Below, one piece after another: positions 1 to 46,164 of a stretch of 64,000 nt of DNA. A program made the translations under genes and the position numbers. The notes under the pieces are model-generated. The model was not told the DNA's origin. It did no database searches and worked only from the letters and a program-made list of their open reading frames with translations. Positions within the stretch are counted from its first letter, which is position 1; every line of letters begins with the position of its first letter. Origin of the DNA: Escherichia coli (GTDB lineage: Bacteria; Pseudomonadota; Gammaproteobacteria; Enterobacterales; Enterobacteriaceae). The DNA lies in NCBI RefSeq assembly GCF_029227855.1, contig NZ_CP074356.1; one strand, given 5' to 3'.

Positions 1-1520
1 AATACGGGTATTACATTCGTTTTCTTATTTATTACCCACGGTGGAGCGACAAATAGCTCCGGCAACATATCCGCAGTGGCGTATTCACATTCTTCAGCGA
101 CTAACTGAGTACGACATTCAGATAAGATGCCTGCCGCTTTAGCATTAACCCAGGGAATGACGTCAGTGACTAAATCTGGCGTGGCGGTAATCAGTTTGAC
201 AAGCGCTTTACGCCACTGTGCATCTTCATGTATTGCCAGTAAAGTTGCATAAGCGGCAAGAGCCGCAGCGGGATGTTTTTGACAGGCTTTGCTTAAGTAT
301 TCCAGGTGCTTTTTCTTGCCAATTACACCGAGGATCAGAATTTGAATCGCATCCGGGTGATTCGTTTTCCATAGCCATTTGACAAGATCTTCAGTCTCGC
401 TGATGCGCTCGAAGAGATAAGTGGGATTGTCAGAATGCTCTTCCGTAAACTCAAGAAGTATCCGGCTTACACCGCGCACCCCATTATTTGCCAGCAACAT
501 TGCCAGATAAGCGCGAAAATCATGATACAACGGTGGGAAGTCGTATTTTTCTGCTGTAGTCAGAGCGGCGTCATCGGTTACCACCAGTCTTAACCAGGTC
601 ATCGCCGGAACGTTTTGATCTGCATAACGTAGCGCCATAGCATTGGCAATATCCGGGCGTTCAGGGAGCAGTAACGCCGCAAAAGGTTGCCGTGCTGGGG
701 ATAGCGAGGGAATAGCAGCGAGAACTTTATCTACACAGCGTTGCCACTCATCTTCTGAAGCGAGTGAAAGATGATGACATAGACGTTGATGCCAGTTCGG
801 TAGTGATTCTGCTTTGAGATCAGGGGGAATAATGGTGGTGACGTCGGCTTTTACTGGTTTATATTTGAGTTGAAGAGCGAGAAGGGCGATTTCAACGGTA
901 GTTTCCAGACCACAGCGAATGACTAAGTCATCGACCAGTTCATCTGTAGAGTAAGAGTTCCATAAATTCCAGAGCAATGCCGCATCAGATTGTATACTTC
1001 CTGTTTGTTGATTATTCAGAATTCGCCTTTGTAACTCGGCAAACGCCAGCTGCCAGTTTTCAGGATAAGAGCGGTAATTATTGTCGGGGTCATATGCCCT
1101 GGTGTTATTCGCGATGCGCTTCCATATTTGGCCATCTTTGTACAGATAATTGATCTCTCTGGGGCGAGAGCGATGAGGAAAAGCAAATCGATTAATATCG
1201 CCAGTTACCGGAATGACTGCATCATCAGCCACCCATGGGCGTTTGTTTTTACTCTCAGGGGAGGTTTCAACTTCAGGAGTGGCTTTGGTGATGGGGGGGA
1301 TATGCACGTTTGCTAAAGCATTTTCCACATAGCCTTTTTTCGTTTTCTCTGCGATCAGCTTAAGCTCCGCTTTTGCCGCTGCCGCAGCATCCGCAAAACT
1401 TTTTACCTGGTTTTGCCCTTTGGTGCCAACTTTTCCCCAACAGATATGCAACTCGTTTCCCTGTTGCTCCACCGCCCAGAATTTATGTGATTTTTCGTCC
1501 TGAAAGATAAAGTGCCTCAT
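1..1520 (-). CDS. molR: MolR-like protein, N-terminal part with WGR-type domain; gene runs off the window start
   Basis: Manual minus-strand translation from the ATG at 1518-1520 gives MRHFIFQDEKSHKFWAVEQQGNELHICWGKVGTKGQ (WGR-like); the same frame is still open at positions 3-59 (..ELFVAPPWVINKKTNVIPV). Not in the ORF track because no stop lies inside the window. Internal frame continuity was not checked codon by codon. Confidence 0.55.
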   Translation of the reverse strand, partial: MRHFIFQDEKSHKFWAVEQQGNELHICWGKVGTKGQNQVKSFADAAAAAKAELKLIAEKTKKGYVENALANVHIPPITKATPEVETSPESKNKRPWVADDAVIPVTGDINRFAFPHRSRPREINYLYKDGQIWKRIANNTRAYDPDNNYRSYPENWQLAFAELQRRILNNQQTGSIQSDAALLWNLWNSYSTDELVDDLVIRCGLETTVEIALLALQLKYKPVKADVTTIIPPDLKAESLPNWHQRLCHHLSLASEDEWQRCVDKVLAAIPSLSPARQPFAALLLPERPDIANAMALRYADQNVPAMTWLRLVVTDDAALTTAEKYDFPPLYHDFRAYLAMLLANNGVRGVSRILLEFTEEHSDNPTYLFERISETEDLVKWLWKTNHPDAIQILILGVIGKKKHLEYLSKACQKHPAAALAAYATLLAIHEDAQWRKALVKLITATPDLVTDVIPWVNAKAAGILSECRTQLVAEECEYATADMLPELFVAPPWVINKKTNVIPV

Positions 1521-1619
1521 TCTGCATCCCTGTAATTTTATCCAGTTGAATGCTGATGCTACCAGTATTTATGCGGGTTAGAGAGAGACAAAATCGCAAG
1601 AAAACAACTTTAGGAATTT

Positions 1620-2330
1620 ATAAATAAATATCCTCCGGCATAGCCGGAGGTTTTTCAAATGCGCCTATAAGGCTCTCTTACCAGCCGCGCCCTAACAGGC
1701 GCACACGATCTGACATTTGCATCCAACTTCGTTACTTACGGCCCGTAAACGGGCTGCCCGGATAGGGAATCGATAACTGCTCTCCCATTTTATCCTCTTC
1801 AAGCTGGTGCTTTATGTAATCCTGTATCTTCGCCGTGTTCTTACCCACCGTATCGACGTAATACCCTCTGCACCAGAACTCCCTGTTCCTGTATTTGAAT
1901 TTCAAATCACCAAACTGCTCGTAAAGCATCAGACTGCTTTTCCCTTTCAGATATCCCATAAAGCCTGATACGCTCATTTTGGGCGGGATCTCCACAAGCA
2001 TATGGATATGATCTGCACAGCATTCAGCTTCCAGAATCCGTACACTTTTCCACTCACACAGCTTTCTCAAAATACAGCCTATTGCTCTACGCTTCTCTCT
2101 GTAGAACACCTGTCTTCGGTATTTTGGCGCAAATACTATGTGATATTTACAGTTCCATCGGGTGTGCGCTAAGCTCTTTTCGTTCCCCATTGGGACCCCC
2201 TTTTGATTTCTTGTTTGACACTTGCAGTTGCCAGACCGCAAGGTGTTTTAACAAATCAAAAGGGGTTTTAATAACTGGCTCAAAGCTGAAAGCTTTCCGG
2301 AACCCCCAGCCTAGCTGGGGGTTTTCTGTG
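1620..2330 (-). mobile_element. IS200 insertion sequence (IS200/IS605 family), ends approximate
   Basis: Carries a 152-aa HuH Y1 transposase gene; perfect palindrome aacccccagcctagctgggggtt at 2301-2323 plus a downstream aaaacccctttt / aaaaggggg pairing upstream of tnpA match the IS200 left-end structures; hairpin cctccggcatagccggagg at 1632-1650 near the other end. Boundaries inferred from the expected ~0.7 kb element size, not from alignment. Confidence 0.7.
1732..2190 (-). CDS. tnpA: IS200 transposase TnpA (HuH single-strand DNA transposase)
   Basis: ORF 1732..2241; start placed at the internal Met (MGNEKSLAHTRWNCKYHIVFAPKYRR..), giving 152 aa; HuH motif HIHMLVEIPP and conserved Tyr-containing C-terminal region. 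Confidence 0.85.
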   Translation of the reverse strand: MGNEKSLAHTRWNCKYHIVFAPKYRRQVFYREKRRAIGCILRKLCEWKSVRILEAECCADHIHMLVEIPPKMSVSGFMGYLKGKSSLMLYEQFGDLKFKYRNREFWCRGYYVDTVGKNTAKIQDYIKHQLEEDKMGEQLSIPYPGSPFTGRK

Positions 2331-2360
2331 CACAAGAAAAGGCGCTGTCGATACAGCGCC
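2331..2360 (-). terminator. Probable rho-independent terminator of metG
   Basis: Stem ggcgctgt/acagcgcc (2341-2360) followed on the minus strand by a T-rich run (complement of cacaagaaaa at 2331-2340), just downstream of the metG stop. Confidence 0.5.
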
Positions 2361-2371
2361 TTGAAAGGAGA

Positions 2372-4405
2372 TTATTTCACCTGATGACCCGGTTTAGCAC
2401 CGGCATCCGGGCTTAGCAGGAAAATATCTTTCCCGCCAGGACCGGCAGCCATCACCATGCCTTCGGAGATACCGAAGCGCATTTTACGTGGTGCCAGGTT
2501 AGCCACCATAATGGTGTGACGACCAATCAGTGCCTGCGGATCCGGGTAAGCAGAACGAATGCCGGAGAAGACATTGCGTTTTTCACCGCCGAGATCCAGC
2601 GTCAGGCGCAGCAGTTTGTCGGAACCTTCAACAAACTCTGCGTTTTCAATCAACGCCACGCGCAGGTCAACTTTGGCGAAGTCGTCAAAGGTGATGGTTT
2701 CCTGAATCGGATCATCTGCCAGTGGGCCAGTTACTGGCGCGGCAGTGGCTTTCACTTCTTCTTTAGAGGCTTCCACCAGTGCTTCAACCTGCTTCATGTC
2801 GATGCGGTTATACAGCGCTTTGAACGGATTCACTTTATGGCCCAACAGCGGTTGCTGGATACCATCCCAGGTCAGTTCCGTATTAAGGAATGCTTCTGCA
2901 CGCTCGGTCAGTTTCGGCAGTACCGGCTTCAGGTAAGTCATCAGCACGCGGAACAGGTTTATGCCCATCGAGCAAATTGCCTGCAGGTCGGCATCGCGGC
3001 CTTCCTGTTTTGCGACTACCCACGGAGCCTGTTCATCGACATAACGGTTAGCAAGATCAGCCAGCGCCATGATTTCGCGGATCGCTTTACCAAATTCGCG
3101 GCTTTCCCACGCTTCACCAATCACTTCAGCGGCATCAGTGAAGGTTTTGTACAGTTGCGGGTCAGCCAGTTCGCTTGCCAGCACACCGTCAAAACGCTTG
3201 TTGATAAAGCCCGCGTTACGGGAGGCCAGGTTAACCACTTTATTCACGATATCGGCATTCACACGCTGAACGAAATCTTCCAGGTTGAGATCGATATCAT
3301 CAATGCGCGAAGAGAGTTTCGCAGTGTAGTAGTAACGCAGGCTGTCGGCGTCAAAATGATTCAGCCAGGTGCTGGCCTTAATAAAGGTACCGCGAGACTT
3401 AGACATCTTCGCGCCGTTCACCGTCACATAGCCATGAACAAACAGGTTAGTCGGCTTGCGGAAGTTGCTGCCTTCCAGCATTGCTGGCCAGAACAGGCTG
3501 TGGAAGTAAACAATATCTTTGCCGATGAAGTGATACAGCTCGGCGGTGGAATCTTTCTTCCAGTATTCATCGAAGCTGGTGGTGTCGCCGCGTTTGTCGC
3601 ACAGATTCTTGAAGGAACCCATGTAGCCAATCGGCGCATCCAGCCAGACGTAGAAATATTTGCCCGGTGCGTTCGGAATTTCAAAACCGAAGTATGGCGC
3701 ATCGCGGGAGATATCCCACTGTTGCAGGCCAGATTCAAACCACTCCTGCATTTTGTTTGCCACTTGCTCCTGCAACGCGCCGCTGCGGGTCCATGCCTGC
3801 AACATTTCGCTGAAAGAGGGCAGATCAAAGAAGAAGTGTTCAGAATCACGCATTACCGGCGTAGCACCAGAAACCACCGATTTAGGCTCGATCAGCTCAG
3901 TCGGGCTGTAGGTCGCGCCACAAACTTCACAGTTATCGCCGTATTGATCCGGGGATTTACATTTCGGGCAGGTGCCTTTTACAAAACGGTCCGGCAGGAA
4001 CATGCCTTTTTCCGGATCGTACAGCTGAGAGATAGTGCGGTTTTTAATAAAACCGTTCTCTTTCAGGCGAGAATAAATAAGTTCTGACAACTGGCGGTTC
4101 TCTTCGCTGTGCGTCGAGTGATAGTTGTCATAGCTGATGTTAAAGCCTGCGAAATCAGTCTGATGCTCCTGACTCATTTCGCCAATCATCTGCTCCGGGG
4201 TGATACCAAGCTGCTGAGCTTTCAGCATGATCGGTGTGCCGTGGGCATCGTCGGCGCAAATGAAGTTGACCTCGTGGCCGCGCATTCGCTGGTAACGGAC
4301 CCAGACATCAGCCTGGATGTGCTCCAGCATATGGCCGAGGTGGATTGAGCCGTTAGCGTACGGCAGTGCGCACGTCACCAGAATTTTCTTCGCGACTTGA
4401 GTCAT
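2372..4405 (-). CDS. metG: Methionine--tRNA ligase
   Basis: 680-aa ORF with class I HLGH (HIGH) and KMSKS motifs; start placed at [12 protein letters not shown] to give 677 aa. Confidence 0.95.
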
Positions 4406-4536
4406 AGTAGGCATTACTTCTTAATAGTGAAAAGGGGTTAGATAGTACCAAATGGGAAAATGTTAAGTAAGTACTTCTCTATATTCTTCAGGTAAACTAT
4501 CAGCTGATGGTTTATCTATACAAAAAAGGAGTCGGG

Positions 4537-10295: not shown

Positions 10296-11330
10296 ATGAA
10301 AATTCGCATAATGCTATTTATATTAATGATGATGGTTATGCCAGTGAGCTATGCAGCATGTTATAGTGAGTTATCTGTTCAGCACAATTTGGTTGTTCAG
10401 GGGGATTTTGCACTTAGTCAAACACAAATAGCGACATATGAGCATAATTTTAATGATTCGTCATGCGTGAGTACAAATACTATCACCCCTATGAGCCCGT
10501 CGGATATTATTGTTGGACTTTATAACGATACCATTAAATTAAATTTACATTTTGAATGGACCAATAAAAACAAAATCACGTTGTCAAATAATCAGACCAG
10601 TTTCACCAGTGGTTATTCGGTAACGGTGACACCTGCGGCCAGTAATGCAAAAGTGAATGTTTCTGCGGGGGGCGGCGGTTCAGTAATGATTAATGGTGTT
10701 GCAACATTATCCAGTGCTTCATCATCGACACGCGGGAGTGCTGCAGTACAATTTTTACTGTGTTTATTCGGTGGCAAGTCATGGGATGCATGTGTAAATA
10801 GCTACAGAAATGCATTGGCACAAAATGCAGGTGTCTATTCCTTTAATCTGACATTGTCATACAACCCGATAACCACAACCTGCAAACCGGACGATTTATT
10901 AATTACTTTAGAGAGTATTCCCGTTTCACAATTACCAGCCAAAGGTAACAAAGCAACAATAAATAGTAACAAAGGGGATATTGTTCTGCGTTGTAAAAAC
11001 TTATTAGGTCAACAAAATCAAACATCACGGAAAATGCAGGTGTATTTATCAAGTTCTGACTTGTGGGGCAGTAGTAACACGATCCTGAAAGGTGCGGAAG
11101 ATAATGGCGTAGGATTTATTCTTGAAAGTAATGGTTCGCCAGTCACACTTTTAAATATCACTAACAGCAGTAAAGGATATACAAATTTAAAGGAAGTTGC
11201 TGCGAAGTCAAAACTTACAGATACAACGGTTTCAATTCCGATAACTGCCAGTTACTACGTCTACGATACAAACAAAGTTAAATCTGGCGCACTGGAGGCA
11301 ACCGCATTAATCAACGTGAAATACGACTAA
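10296..11330 (+). CDS. yehA: Fimbrial adhesin-like subunit
   Basis: 344-aa ORF with signal peptide; terminal gene of the chaperone-usher operon. Confidence 0.75.
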   Translation: MKIRIMLFILMMMVMPVSYAACYSELSVQHNLVVQGDFALSQTQIATYEHNFNDSSCVSTNTITPMSPSDIIVGLYNDTIKLNLHFEWTNKNKITLSNNQTSFTSGYSVTVTPAASNAKVNVSAGGGGSVMINGVATLSSASSSTRGSAAVQFLLCLFGGKSWDACVNSYRNALAQNAGVYSFNLTLSYNPITTTCKPDDLLITLESIPVSQLPAKGNKATINSNKGDIVLRCKNLLGQQNQTSRKMQVYLSSSDLWGSSNTILKGAEDNGVGFILESNGSPVTLLNITNSSKGYTNLKEVAAKSKLTDTTVSIPITASYYVYDTNKVKSGALEATALINVKYD

Positions 11331-31090: not shown

Positions 31091-31291
31091 AATTCTCTCG
31101 TTCTGATGACAGGTCAGATCCGCTTCACCTGATGAAGCGGCCAGGGGAGTGCCCCCACTTTAAGGGCGGGCATTGTAGCGCAATCGTCGGGGTTGGCTCC
31201 AGTGTAATTGTGATGAGCTTTTCGATGCCTGGCGTACAATTGACATCAGAATTGAGTATATTTACGACCGTGAATGTTAAGGAGTTAAAAC

Positions 31292-31897
31292 ATGTGGATG
31301 TTAAAGAAGGGATTCACTCTGGCTCTGTTGGTTCTGTTTTCTCTGCCCGCTACTGCCGGTCTTTCGCTGGAGGAGACTGCTCGCAAGGTGATTATCGGCT
31401 TTCAGCAAGAAGATGCTCAATTAATCAACTCATTAATTGATAAAAAAACGGGGTTGTATGTTCTTTTCCACCGTGGCGCTTCGATGGATGTCGAAAATTT
31501 TAAGTCAATTGATTTTAAAACGCCTGTTCCCGAGTATTTGCTGTGGCCTTCGGCAGGGGAGCATATTCCGCGAGATGAAGAGTTTGATAAGAAAACTATC
31601 CCGGAATTTGACTGTGAACGTGGCTGGAATAAGCACGGATATTTTATTAGCAGCAGCGATACACACCATAAAGTCAGCCGTAATTTGGTCTTCACGCAGA
31701 TGTTTGGTTCACCGCGAAACACTATTTCTGATGCGCAGATTGCCGCAGCGCGTCGAATGGAGTACGGGGCCGTGCGTGTGGTCGCTGCGCCAGAAAAGGG
31801 TAGCGACGGACTGGTATTTTATTTAAGTCAACTTTACGGTTATGACACTGACTGGTATCTGACGGTGGTGGATCAGATTGGTGATTGTGGGGCGTGA
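31292..31897 (+). CDS. Hypothetical secreted protein (signal peptide), unknown function
   Basis: 201-aa ORF; N-terminus MWMLKKGFTLALLVLFSLPATAGLS resembles a Sec signal peptide; no family motif recognised. Lies in a segment I do not recall at this position in K-12. Confidence 0.55.
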   Translation: MWMLKKGFTLALLVLFSLPATAGLSLEETARKVIIGFQQEDAQLINSLIDKKTGLYVLFHRGASMDVENFKSIDFKTPVPEYLLWPSAGEHIPRDEEFDKKTIPEFDCERGWNKHGYFISSSDTHHKVSRNLVFTQMFGSPRNTISDAQIAAARRMEYGAVRVVAAPEKGSDGLVFYLSQLYGYDTDWYLTVVDQIGDCGA

Positions 31898-31927
31898 TAA
31901 AGATTTATCCGCCCGCAAGCAGTGATG

Positions 31928-33328
31928 TTATTTGAAGGGAATGTAACCCCATAATCTGTTGTGAAGTTCCGGATTGCGGGTAAAAAGCGCCTGAAGTTGC
32001 TGACGCTGGGGAGCATTCGGTTGAATGCCTGAAAGATTGAAATTGCGTTGCCATATTGCGAGCTGTTTATCTGCAAATTCTTCAGTTAGCTTGTGTTGCG
32101 ATTGCAGAAGAAGAATTAAACCGTCCCATTTGTTCAAGTTAGGATACAACCGACAATATGCGCAAGCATGTTTAACTGACGGTGCGTTTTCCAGCAACTG
32201 ACGTATTTCCTCGAACGTGAGCGGAACTCGACACCATACACAGATGTTAACCATAAATCGAAGCCCGGAGGCGTCCGGGTTAGCCAGTGTGGTCAGAATA
32301 ATCCCTTTGACACCACCATCAGGATTGGCTTTCGCAAGAATATACATAGCGGCTAATCGCAGTGGGAATACATCCTGTAATAATCCCCATTCTGCCAGTT
32401 TTAAAATATTGGCATCATGAATGGAGTCCAGCCCGTATAAAGCTGCCCGGCGCTGTGAGGGAGTATATTCAGTCGAGGTGACAACATGACGCCAGAATTG
32501 CGCAACATCCATGACGTCATTAAGCATGTTTTTAGCGCGTAGACGGATCAACATATTGTTATCCAGCAGTAATGCGCCGTACAACTCCGGAGGAATTTCT
32601 ATAGCTCGGTCAGTAAGGCTAAACAACGTTGCTTGTCGAATACGCGGCCAGCGGTCTTTTAACAGACGAGTTAATACCGCTTCGCTTAACGGTAATTGTT
32701 GACGCAGCCAGTGGGTGACCGCCAGCATTCGTAACCCTTCGTCGGGCTGCTTGAGTATTAAAAGCAGCGAAGATTCATCATTAAAGTAGCCATATTCAAT
32801 CAGCGTTTGTAATACTGCGCGGGAGAGTTTTTTATCAGGGCAAGTAAGCCAACACGTTAATTGTGGACGGCTATTTTCTGTCAATAAAAATCTAAGTATC
32901 TCGTCTACAAATGCACGGTGATCGTAACGCTGGCATTGGAGAAGGTTACGTATCATGGGAAGATTAACGGCAAATGCCGCTGCATTCTTACCCTTCTTTA
33001 AATGACGTAACGCTATGGTTGCAGCAAGGCGAACCTCTTTTACCCAGTCATTAGCTGCAAGTAATAATTCTTCTATAGCTGCAACATCCTCTTTTTGTCC
33101 CAGACATTGCACGGCCTTTTCTCGTATATATCCATTGTGGTGATAGGTAAGCTGGCAAAGAACCAGAGTATTGTTGAGATCACAATCATGCGCTATATAA
33201 TTGCCTGGATCGGCTATCATCGCCTGGAGTTGTTGCTGGATAAGAAATAATTCACAGTCAACAGAATTATTCATTTCGACGTTAAACAAAACCCTGCGTG
33301 TAAATAATGTACGCAATCCTTTGAGCAT
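31928..33328 (-). CDS. Hypothetical HEAT/ARM-like repeat protein, unknown function
   Basis: 466-aa ORF; alpha-helical repeats resembling PBS-lyase HEAT repeats (..REKAVQCLGQKEDVAAIEELLLAANDWVKEVRLAATIALRHL..); convergent with the 201-aa gene. Confidence 0.55.
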   Translation of the reverse strand: MLKGLRTLFTRRVLFNVEMNNSVDCELFLIQQQLQAMIADPGNYIAHDCDLNNTLVLCQLTYHHNGYIREKAVQCLGQKEDVAAIEELLLAANDWVKEVRLAATIALRHLKKGKNAAAFAVNLPMIRNLLQCQRYDHRAFVDEILRFLLTENSRPQLTCWLTCPDKKLSRAVLQTLIEYGYFNDESSLLLILKQPDEGLRMLAVTHWLRQQLPLSEAVLTRLLKDRWPRIRQATLFSLTDRAIEIPPELYGALLLDNNMLIRLRAKNMLNDVMDVAQFWRHVVTSTEYTPSQRRAALYGLDSIHDANILKLAEWGLLQDVFPLRLAAMYILAKANPDGGVKGIILTTLANPDASGLRFMVNICVWCRVPLTFEEIRQLLENAPSVKHACAYCRLYPNLNKWDGLILLLQSQHKLTEEFADKQLAIWQRNFNLSGIQPNAPQRQQLQALFTRNPELHNRLWGYIPFK

Positions 33329-45016: not shown

Positions 45017-45169
45017 TGGAGGAATTATGAAACACTATCGGGAATCGTCTGAATGGCGGGCACATTTGCGAGCACGCATCCAGTAATAACACATGAAACT
45101 ATTTTATCTACGCGTTAGCGATAGACTACGTGCATGGCGAAAGGAGGTAAGCCGATGATTTCAGCGGGA

Positions 45170-45310
45170 CGCTGAAACGGGAAAGCCCCTCCCGAGGAAG
45201 GGGCCATAAATAAATAAGGAAAGGGTCATGATGAAGCTACTCATCATCGTGGTGCTCTTAGTCATTAGCTGGCCAGCTTACTAAGACTACCAGGGCGGGG
45301 GAAACCCCGC
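45170..45310 (-). ncRNA. sib: Sib-family antisense sRNA (antitoxin) covering ibs copy 1; ends approximate
   Basis: Sib antitoxins are encoded fully antisense to ibs; minus-strand hairpin gcccctc/gaggggc at 45184-45204 followed by a U-rich stretch could be the 3' end. Confidence 0.5.
45228..45284 (+). CDS. ibs: Ibs-family type I toxin (18 aa, MMKLLIIVVLLVISWPAY)
   Basis: Small hydrophobic ORF preceded by aaggaaagggtc SD; matches the Ibs toxin family pattern. Below the ORF-track length cutoff. Confidence 0.75.
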   Translation: MMKLLIIVVLLVISWPAY

Positions 45311-45497
45311 TCTACCCTCACTCCTGAAAGTATGCCTTCACGATAAGATTGTCAATCTGCAGGCTTTGCAGTCTGCGATCCTGCCAGCAAATATTCTTTG
45401 CGAGACGTTACGCAATAATCACACTGGAAACTATTTTATCCGCAAGTCAGCGATAGACTGCATACAGGGCGAAAGGAGGTAAGCCGACGATTTCAGC

Positions 45498-45638
45498 GGG
45501 ACGCTGAAACGGGAAAGCCCCTCCCGAGGAAGGGGCCTTAAATAAGGAAAGGGTCATGATGAAGATACTCATCATCGTGGTGCTCTTAGTGATTAGCTAC
45601 CCAGCATACTAAGACTACCAGGGCGGGGGAAACCCCGC
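45498..45638 (-). ncRNA. sib: Sib-family antisense sRNA covering ibs copy 2; ends approximate
   Basis: Position inferred by repeat periodicity relative to copy 1. Confidence 0.45.
45556..45612 (+). CDS. ibs: Ibs-family type I toxin (18 aa, MMKILIIVVLLVISYPAY)
   Basis: Second repeat unit; same SD and ORF architecture. Confidence 0.75.
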   Translation: MMKILIIVVLLVISYPAY

Positions 45639-45826
45639 TCTACCCTCACTCCTGAAATTATGCCTTCACGATAAGATTGTCAATCTGCAGGCTTTGCAGT
45701 CTGCGATCCTGCCAGCAAATATTCTTTGCGAGTCGTTACGCAATAATCACAGAGGAAACTATTTTGTTCACGCGTTAGCGATAGACTGCATTCAGGGCGA
45801 AAGGAGGTAAGCCGACGATTTCAGCG

Positions 45827-45967
45827 GGACGCTGAAACGGGAAACCCTCTCCCGGAGAAGAGGGCTTTTAATAAGGAAAGGGTTATGATGAAGCACGTCA
45901 TCATACTGGTGATACTCTTAGTGATTAGCTTCCAGGCTTACTAAGAACACCAGGGGGAGGTGGAAAC
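45827..45967 (-). ncRNA. sib: Sib-family antisense sRNA covering ibs copy 3; ends approximate
   Basis: Position inferred by repeat periodicity. Confidence 0.45.
45885..45944 (+). CDS. ibs: Ibs-family type I toxin (19 aa, MMKHVIILVILLVISFQAY)
   Basis: Third repeat unit; variant C-terminus (FQAY). Confidence 0.7.
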   Translation: MMKHVIILVILLVISFQAY

Positions 45968-46164
45968 CTCTCCCTAACCCTCACTCCTGAAATTATGTCA
46001 CTCCGCCCTTAGTGTCAATCGACGGCTCTCCGTTCTTGCGAGGCGAATAGCAAAATTTTCTGCGCCGCCGGGCCTAATTCTGAAAGTTTCTTCGTTTGCT
46101 CTTATTTCATTATTGCAGTCGGTATGATACCGGACCTCAATAATTCTCTAAGAAAGGATTTCTT

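Follow-up and report, generated by a model that had tools for sequence, protein, structure and literature searches.

An intact IS200C copy directly 3′ of the metG terminator in Escherichia coli

Results

We examined the metG-molR intergenic region in a stretch of 64,000 nucleotides of Escherichia coli DNA, here referred to as the window. Positions 1623-2333 (711 bp, minus strand) almost certainly hold an intact IS200C, placed 3′ of the T-run of the metG terminator, which would have arrived by the single-strand route of its family and which likely has a small effect on molR. IS200C, the ISfinder name that NCBI PGAP uses, is the E. coli isoform of IS200; within the IS200/IS605 family, IS200 is the minimal member and has tnpA only. 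The copy itself is an ordinary, already known and annotated element. RefSeq annotates tnpA as its sole gene in the clinical isolate JNEC-KY178 from Japan, to which the window shows 99.991% identity (5 mismatches and 1 gap). The element is identical or more than 98% identical over all 711 bp to the annotated IS200C copies of many E. coli genomes and encodes the same TnpA; it is no different from them, and the insertion site alone is unusual.

Identification and boundaries of the element

The junctions were fixed by direct string comparison of the window with K-12 MG1655, at which the site is empty and reads GCGCCTTTTCTT^TATAAATTCC (with longer flanks, ...GGCGCTGCATCGACAGCGCCTTTTCTT^TATAAATTCCTAAAG...). 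IS200C is inserted exactly at the caret, and the occupied site in the window reads ...GCGCCTTTTCTT/GTGCACAG...GGAGGATATTTATT/TATAAATTCC..., with slashes at the junctions. In short form, CTT^TAT in K-12 corresponds to CTT/GTG...ATT/TAT in the window, and no target duplication was found, as in the IS200 group. Position 2333 is thus its left end and position 1623 its right end. The junction has a 2-nt TT ambiguity, such that a 709-bp element with a 2-bp duplication is a formal alternative.

The 711 bp between the junctions agree with the size of around 0.7 kb of IS200-group elements with tnpA only. Other ORFs within the element are short (53-100 aa) and overlap tnpA or the left end. No tnpB-sized ORF was detected within the 711 bp, and the absence of a second gene sets the element apart from the IS605 group, which has tnpA together with tnpB or iscB. 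Neither of the termini, GTGCACAG... and ...ATATTTATT, is an inverted copy of the other; instead of terminal inverted repeats, subterminal hairpins are found at both ends, a 10-bp palindrome at the left and an 8-bp hairpin at the right.

The first-pass annotation, made from the sequence alone, had claimed a complete IS200 in 1521-2371, and the transposase profiles, the left-end features and the empty site in K-12 all support it. Its extents stood in part. The segment 1600-2340 that it named comes close to the true element, while 1521-2371 is the entire metG-molR intergenic region. Comparison with the empty K-12 site, the check that it had proposed, defined the exact ends given above, with the 2-nt ambiguity.

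The transposase

The tnpA gene (1732-2190, minus strand, read from 2190 to 1732) encodes a Y1 (HUH) transposase of 152 aa, as had been read from the sequence beforehand, and this assignment was confirmed by Pfam, NCBIfam and structure alignment. TnpA matched Pfam PF01797 (Y1_Tnp) with 128.7 bits (cutoff 23, E=1.7e-37) and the NCBIfam equivalog NF033573 (transpos_IS200) with 145.9 bits (cutoff 55). Its HUH motif, DHIHMLV, aligns with DHIHLFV, and its catalytic tyrosine motif, RGYYV, with RSYFV of the solved structures PDB 2ec2 and 2f4f; both are also kept in the alignment to the transposases of IS608 and ISDra2. The counterpart in the near-identical JNEC-KY178 is WP_000526113.1, named in RefSeq as 'IS200/IS605-like element IS200C family transposase'.

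We also considered two other readings in place of a mobile IS200: intergenic sequence native to the site, or a REP-associated tyrosine transposase (RAYT) that has been domesticated. The Y1/HUH fold is common to RAYTs, and TnpA had a weak match to the NCBIfam model REP_Tyr_transpos. This match, of 31.4 bits, is far under the cutoff of 80, as opposed to the transpos_IS200 score, which is well above its own cutoff. The flanks of tnpA are the ends of the IS and the metG terminator, with REP arrays absent, and the same 711 bp with identical ends are present at many unrelated loci and on plasmids. As for native sequence, the site in K-12 is cleanly empty and tnpA matches the IS200 profiles, so that the first-pass annotation's own counter-case, native K-12 sequence with no transposase homology, did not hold. 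Given the empty site, the conserved ends at other sites and the profile scores, both readings were rejected, and their probability is practically nil.

Ends and regulatory features

The left end of the IS200C copy carries a perfect palindrome (2301-2323, minus strand, nt 11-33 from the left end; RNA fold) with a 10-bp stem and a 3-nt loop. Its sequence, CCCCCAGCTAGGCTGGGGG, occurs once in the window against 0 occurrences expected by chance. In Salmonella IS200 the palindrome at nt 12-34 is a bidirectional Rho-independent terminator (PMC4513863, PMC5435999), which stops about 85% of incoming transcripts (PMC5435999). The palindrome at 2301-2323 is presumably also the left hairpin bound by TnpA.

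A stem-loop in the 5′UTR (2197-2265, minus strand, nt 69-137 from the left end; RNA fold) pairs the Shine-Dalgarno sequence of tnpA, AAGGGGG at 2202-2196, the G-run of which is paired by the 3′ arm. The sequestering fold has a free energy of -61.9 kcal/mol with z = -4.3. The Shine-Dalgarno stem-loop of Salmonella IS200 is at nt 69-138 (PMC4513863), and the positions of both terminator and stem-loop agree with the published Salmonella map within 1 nt. Rfam RF01405 (STnc490) matches 2323-2200 with 146.4 bits (gathering score 56, E=1.3e-31). These folds, the Rfam match and the single occurrence of the palindrome in the window substantiate the left-end palindrome and the ribosome-binding-site-sequestering stem that had been noticed at first reading.

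The RF01405 match is on the tnpA-sense strand of 2200-2323, while art200/STnc490, as published, is an RNA antisense to the 5′UTR of tnpA (PMC4513863); the model appears to describe the 5′UTR strand. Two further Rfam matches, RAGATH-24 and MIR8001, were under their gathering scores and were taken as chance.

A putative gene for the antisense RNA art200 (STnc490) was placed at around 2181-2271 on the plus strand by transferring coordinates from the Salmonella map. Salmonella art200 has 5′ ends at nt 153/154, is about 90 nt long and is complementary to the 5′UTR together with the initial three codons (PMC4513863). A -35-like TTTACA for the putative gene is present at 2146-2151. By the RF01405 match, the fold and the map positions, the left end holds the regulatory module of the IS200 group, with terminator palindrome, Shine-Dalgarno stem and art200 region.

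At the right end, a subterminal hairpin with an 8-bp stem (1632-1650, minus strand, read from 1650 to 1632) was identified by folding and terminator scan, and it is followed by the terminal ATATTTATT (1631-1623). It scored as terminator-like on both strands, was kept in all six E. coli copies examined, and should stop tnpA transcripts. With the full self-repressing set known from Salmonella IS200 and a terminator-like right end, the IS200C copy is expected, by analogy, to be transcriptionally insulated and nearly silent. IS200 is notoriously dormant and transposes extremely rarely (PMC4513863).

The founding member of the group, Salmonella IS200, likewise has a single tnpA, the terminator, the Shine-Dalgarno stem and the art200/STnc490 region; it was compared through the published map, and its length is 707 bp, against 711 bp here by our definition of the junctions. 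IS1541 of Yersinia is 87.5-87.7% identical to IS200C over the full length in Y. pestis and has an identical left-end palindrome, and it likewise lies directly after hairpin and T-run sequences. It differs in around 12% of its sequence, and Y. pestis carries it at very high copy number, with some of the copies in tandem. More distantly, IS608 and ISDra2 of the IS605 group share the Y1/HUH TnpA fold family (E of about 1e-16 to 1e-19 against the structures that have been solved), subterminal hairpins, and insertion 3′ of a short sequence with no duplication. In contrast to them, tnpB is absent here, and the target is a T-run beside a hairpin rather than TTAC or TTGAT.

Genomic neighbourhood and expected effect on molR

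The metG gene, encoding methionine--tRNA ligase, is at 2372-4414 on the minus strand (RefSeq start 4405; Pfam tRNA-synt_1g E=3.8e-166, and RefSeq annotation). Its native intrinsic terminator (2334-2362, minus strand; terminator scan and fold) consists of a GC-rich hairpin at 2362-2339 and the T-run TTTTCTT at 2340-2334. The terminator is present in K-12 without the IS, its T-run is the insertion target, and IS200C starts at the next base. On the other side of the element are 102 bp of intergenic DNA (1521-1622, minus strand), with one position different from K-12, and then the 5′ part of a WGR/DUF4132 gene, 'molR' (1-1520, minus strand; Pfam WGR E=1.9e-18), which begins at 1520 and continues beyond the edge of the window. 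The molR-like gene is intact in JNEC-KY178 (1265 aa, WP_001215556.1), while the 'molR' of K-12 is now annotated as yehF and the pseudogene yehH; a pseudogene is also found in one of the IS-bearing strains. As metG, its terminator, tnpA and the molR-like gene are all on the minus strand, the first reading was right both in placing the element between metG's terminator and the start of molR and in giving tnpA and molR the same strand.

That reading had further suggested that the left-end hairpin blocks read-through and so could alter molR expression. A stronger form of this idea is that the insertion acts as a regulatory change with a function and shifts molR expression substantially. The Salmonella palindrome does halt about 85% of incoming transcripts (PMC5435999). 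In addition, the promoter scan detected no sigma-70 consensus promoter in 1400-2500, including the 102 bp upstream of molR, and manual reading of these 102 bp gave poor promoter candidates only; with no recognisable promoter in what remains upstream, molR might depend on read-through from metG. A regulatory role is plausible, but it is weakened by the metG terminator, which lies upstream with hairpin and T-run unchanged, and by the proximal 102 bp, which are intact. Moreover, target preference fully accounts for the position without the need for selection, and in K-12, as in one carrier of the insertion, molR is a pseudogene. A substantial change of molR expression is therefore improbable.

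Rather than such a change, we expect from the arrangement of these features an added insulation of molR and a 711-bp displacement of the DNA beyond -102, with no obvious change. IS200C would place two further terminators in the interval from metG to molR and would keep the proximal 102 bp. Its left-end terminator is in series with the metG terminator, the right-end hairpin should stop tnpA transcripts and the 102 bp are intact, all of which makes the expected effect on molR smaller.

Two other regions of the window were recorded. Three diverged repeats with 83-89% identity lie in tandem between mdtA and yegL (45065-45997), and in each of them a gene for an Ibs type I toxin is annotated (45227-45283, 45555-45611 and 45884-45943). 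The annotations of two genes between trhP and yegP (31291-33327) go no further than 'hypothetical protein' for one and 'HEAT repeat domain-containing protein' for the other.

Occurrence in E. coli and the five carriers of the site

IS200C-like DNA was found in 3094 of 5426 complete E. coli genomes, at 10,728 places, with a copy covering at least 80% of IS200C in 2063 genomes; 1227 plasmid records had an IS200C match. E. coli MCJCHV-1 has a copy with 100% identity to the 711-bp element of the window, and alignment of six sites showed the element repeated with conserved ends and differing flanks, as in the IS200 group. The metG-molR site, on the other hand, is occupied in 5 of the 5426 genomes. 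The insertion had been taken at first to mark a lineage different from K-12. The K-12 site is indeed empty, but an element present in 3094 of 5426 genomes marks no lineage by its presence, and it is the site that is rare. To our knowledge E. coli K-12 lacks IS200 genome-wide, and here K-12 was compared at the metG-molR locus; text searches of the literature found no explicit statement on K-12 lacking IS200.

In comparisons with positions 1-4100 of the window, divergence of the IS and divergence of its flanks do not go together among the five carriers. The IS of 2022H047 differs from that of the window at 0 of 711 positions, while metG and molR differ by around 6-8%; 2022H048 had the same 96.7% match, and the alignment covered 2022H047. 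Conversely, FDAARGOS_1279 and elppa5 differ from the window at 5-7 of 711 positions in the IS and encode a different TnpA protein, while molR differs at 1 of 1520 positions and both intergenic parts at none, apart from an extra T at the right-end junction of FDAARGOS_1279. This discordance suggests recurrent insertion or recombination, and by these alignments the element of the five carriers probably reached this one nucleotide in at least two separate events, perhaps in three.

It is rather unlikely, but far from negligible, that the same-site copies arose instead through homologous recombination, by import of an IS-bearing segment, or through gene conversion between IS copies, and not by repeated transposition into a hot spot. 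The metG of FDAARGOS_1279 and elppa5 switches sharply from 0% to around 4-5% divergence from window position ~2653 onward, so that on this comparison the 3′ part of metG holds a recombination breakpoint relative to these two strains. In 2022H047 the 102-bp and 38-bp intergenic flanks are also much less diverged than the neighbouring genes. Both observations favour recombination. The extra T at the right junction of FDAARGOS_1279 speaks against it, as does the site itself, which shows exactly the architecture of hairpin and TTTNTT that IS200-group elements occupy elsewhere.

That the copy is an immobile relic, intact-looking but unable to transpose and inherited vertically in one lineage, is unlikely. 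Such a view would agree with the extreme rarity of IS200 transposition (PMC4513863) and with the occupation of the site in just five genomes. However, the ORF, the catalytic residues and both ends are intact, and identical copies are found elsewhere. The unchanged IS of 2022H047 between flanks that are ~6-8% diverged and the near-identical flanks of FDAARGOS_1279 and elppa5 around an IS with 5-7 differences both speak against one old insertion passed on by simple vertical descent. Separate arrivals at the metG terminator are the simplest reading.

Insertion after terminators

At all six aligned E. coli sites, after metG, fdnI, tcyJ, htpX, rph and a plasmid ORF, the element is oriented like the upstream gene, with its left end directly after a GC-rich hairpin and T-run. 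Scanning one genome per species for exact matches to the left-end palindrome gave at least 120 loci, and the matches listed include Y. pestis, Vibrio, Brenneria, Dickeya, Edwardsiella and Pluralibacter, as well as metagenome-assembled genomes (MAGs) of Mailhella, Oxalobacter and Bacillota. Among the matches listed, 84 of 118 unique left-end flanks from other taxa (71%) end in a strict hairpin and T-run. The same structure was found at 0.7% of positions drawn at random from these loci, at 94 of 1055 TTTNTT/G motifs (8.9%) elsewhere in the loci and the window, and, within the window, at 6 of the 52 TTTNTT motifs that are intergenic. The consensus of the 118 flanks among the matches listed is TTTT-N-TT, followed by the G-T of the element. 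Target choice is non-random, and the metG-molR copy is where it is because IS200-group elements nearly always abut a terminator-like hairpin and T-run.

The exact 23-nt left-end palindrome was also present in MAGs from distant phyla (Bacillota, Desulfovibrionaceae, Saccharibacteria, Elusimicrobiaceae and Oxalobacter), mostly at contig ends, which could reflect wide horizontal spread or mis-binned contigs.

In Y. pestis, head-to-tail tandem copies of IS1541 were observed, at which the second copy is inserted directly after the right-end hairpin and ATATTTATT of the first (locus L077, 2403-3113; locus L079, 1330-2040). Insertion at this point indicates that the right end of the element resembles its target. 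GAAAA is present 5′ of both the left-end and the right-end hairpins and, by analogy with IS608, could be a guide sequence.

Discussion

The proposed arrival of IS200C at the metG-molR site follows the mechanism of its family, a single-strand 'peel and paste' transposition. The Y1/HUH TnpA would bind the subterminal hairpins of the left and right ends, would excise one strand as a circle and would insert it 3′ of a short target sequence. The GC skew of the window is +0.023 on the plus strand, and together with the K-12 map it suggests that the IS200C top strand is on the leading-strand template, in what is a single case. The orientation favoured by IS608 and ISDra2 would then differ from that of this copy.

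As a tentative proposal, to which we give somewhat less than an even chance, IS200-group transposases may, beyond a T-rich cleavage motif, recognise whole intrinsic terminators (GC-rich hairpin and TTTNTT) as single-strand targets that mimic their own right end (hairpin and ATATTTATT), with GAAAA as the guide, and the metG terminator may be a recurrent hot spot. Terminator-like sequences upstream of IS200/IS605 elements have been reported, in aggregate only (preprint, bioRxiv 10.1101/2025.07.22.666184), and an IS1541 between pheL and pheA is an incidental case (PMC3082878). In the part of the literature that was covered, we found no explicit mechanistic account of terminator targeting by IS200 or IS1541. 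Group IIC introns also insert just 3′ of the stem-loops of intrinsic terminators (PMC7923331); these are unrelated retroelements, and the likeness is in target choice only.

As a strain marker the metG-molR insertion is rare (5 of 5426 complete genomes) but probably recurrent. It also provides a natural example, with an empty-site control, of IS200 landing immediately after an intrinsic terminator, a placement which leaves the host unharmed and shields the element from outside transcription. If the proposal is true, terminator mimicry would explain why IS200, IS1541 and their relatives are found after terminators across phyla, and, if not yet described, it would give a testable rule for how the least understood IS200/IS605 family member recognises its targets.
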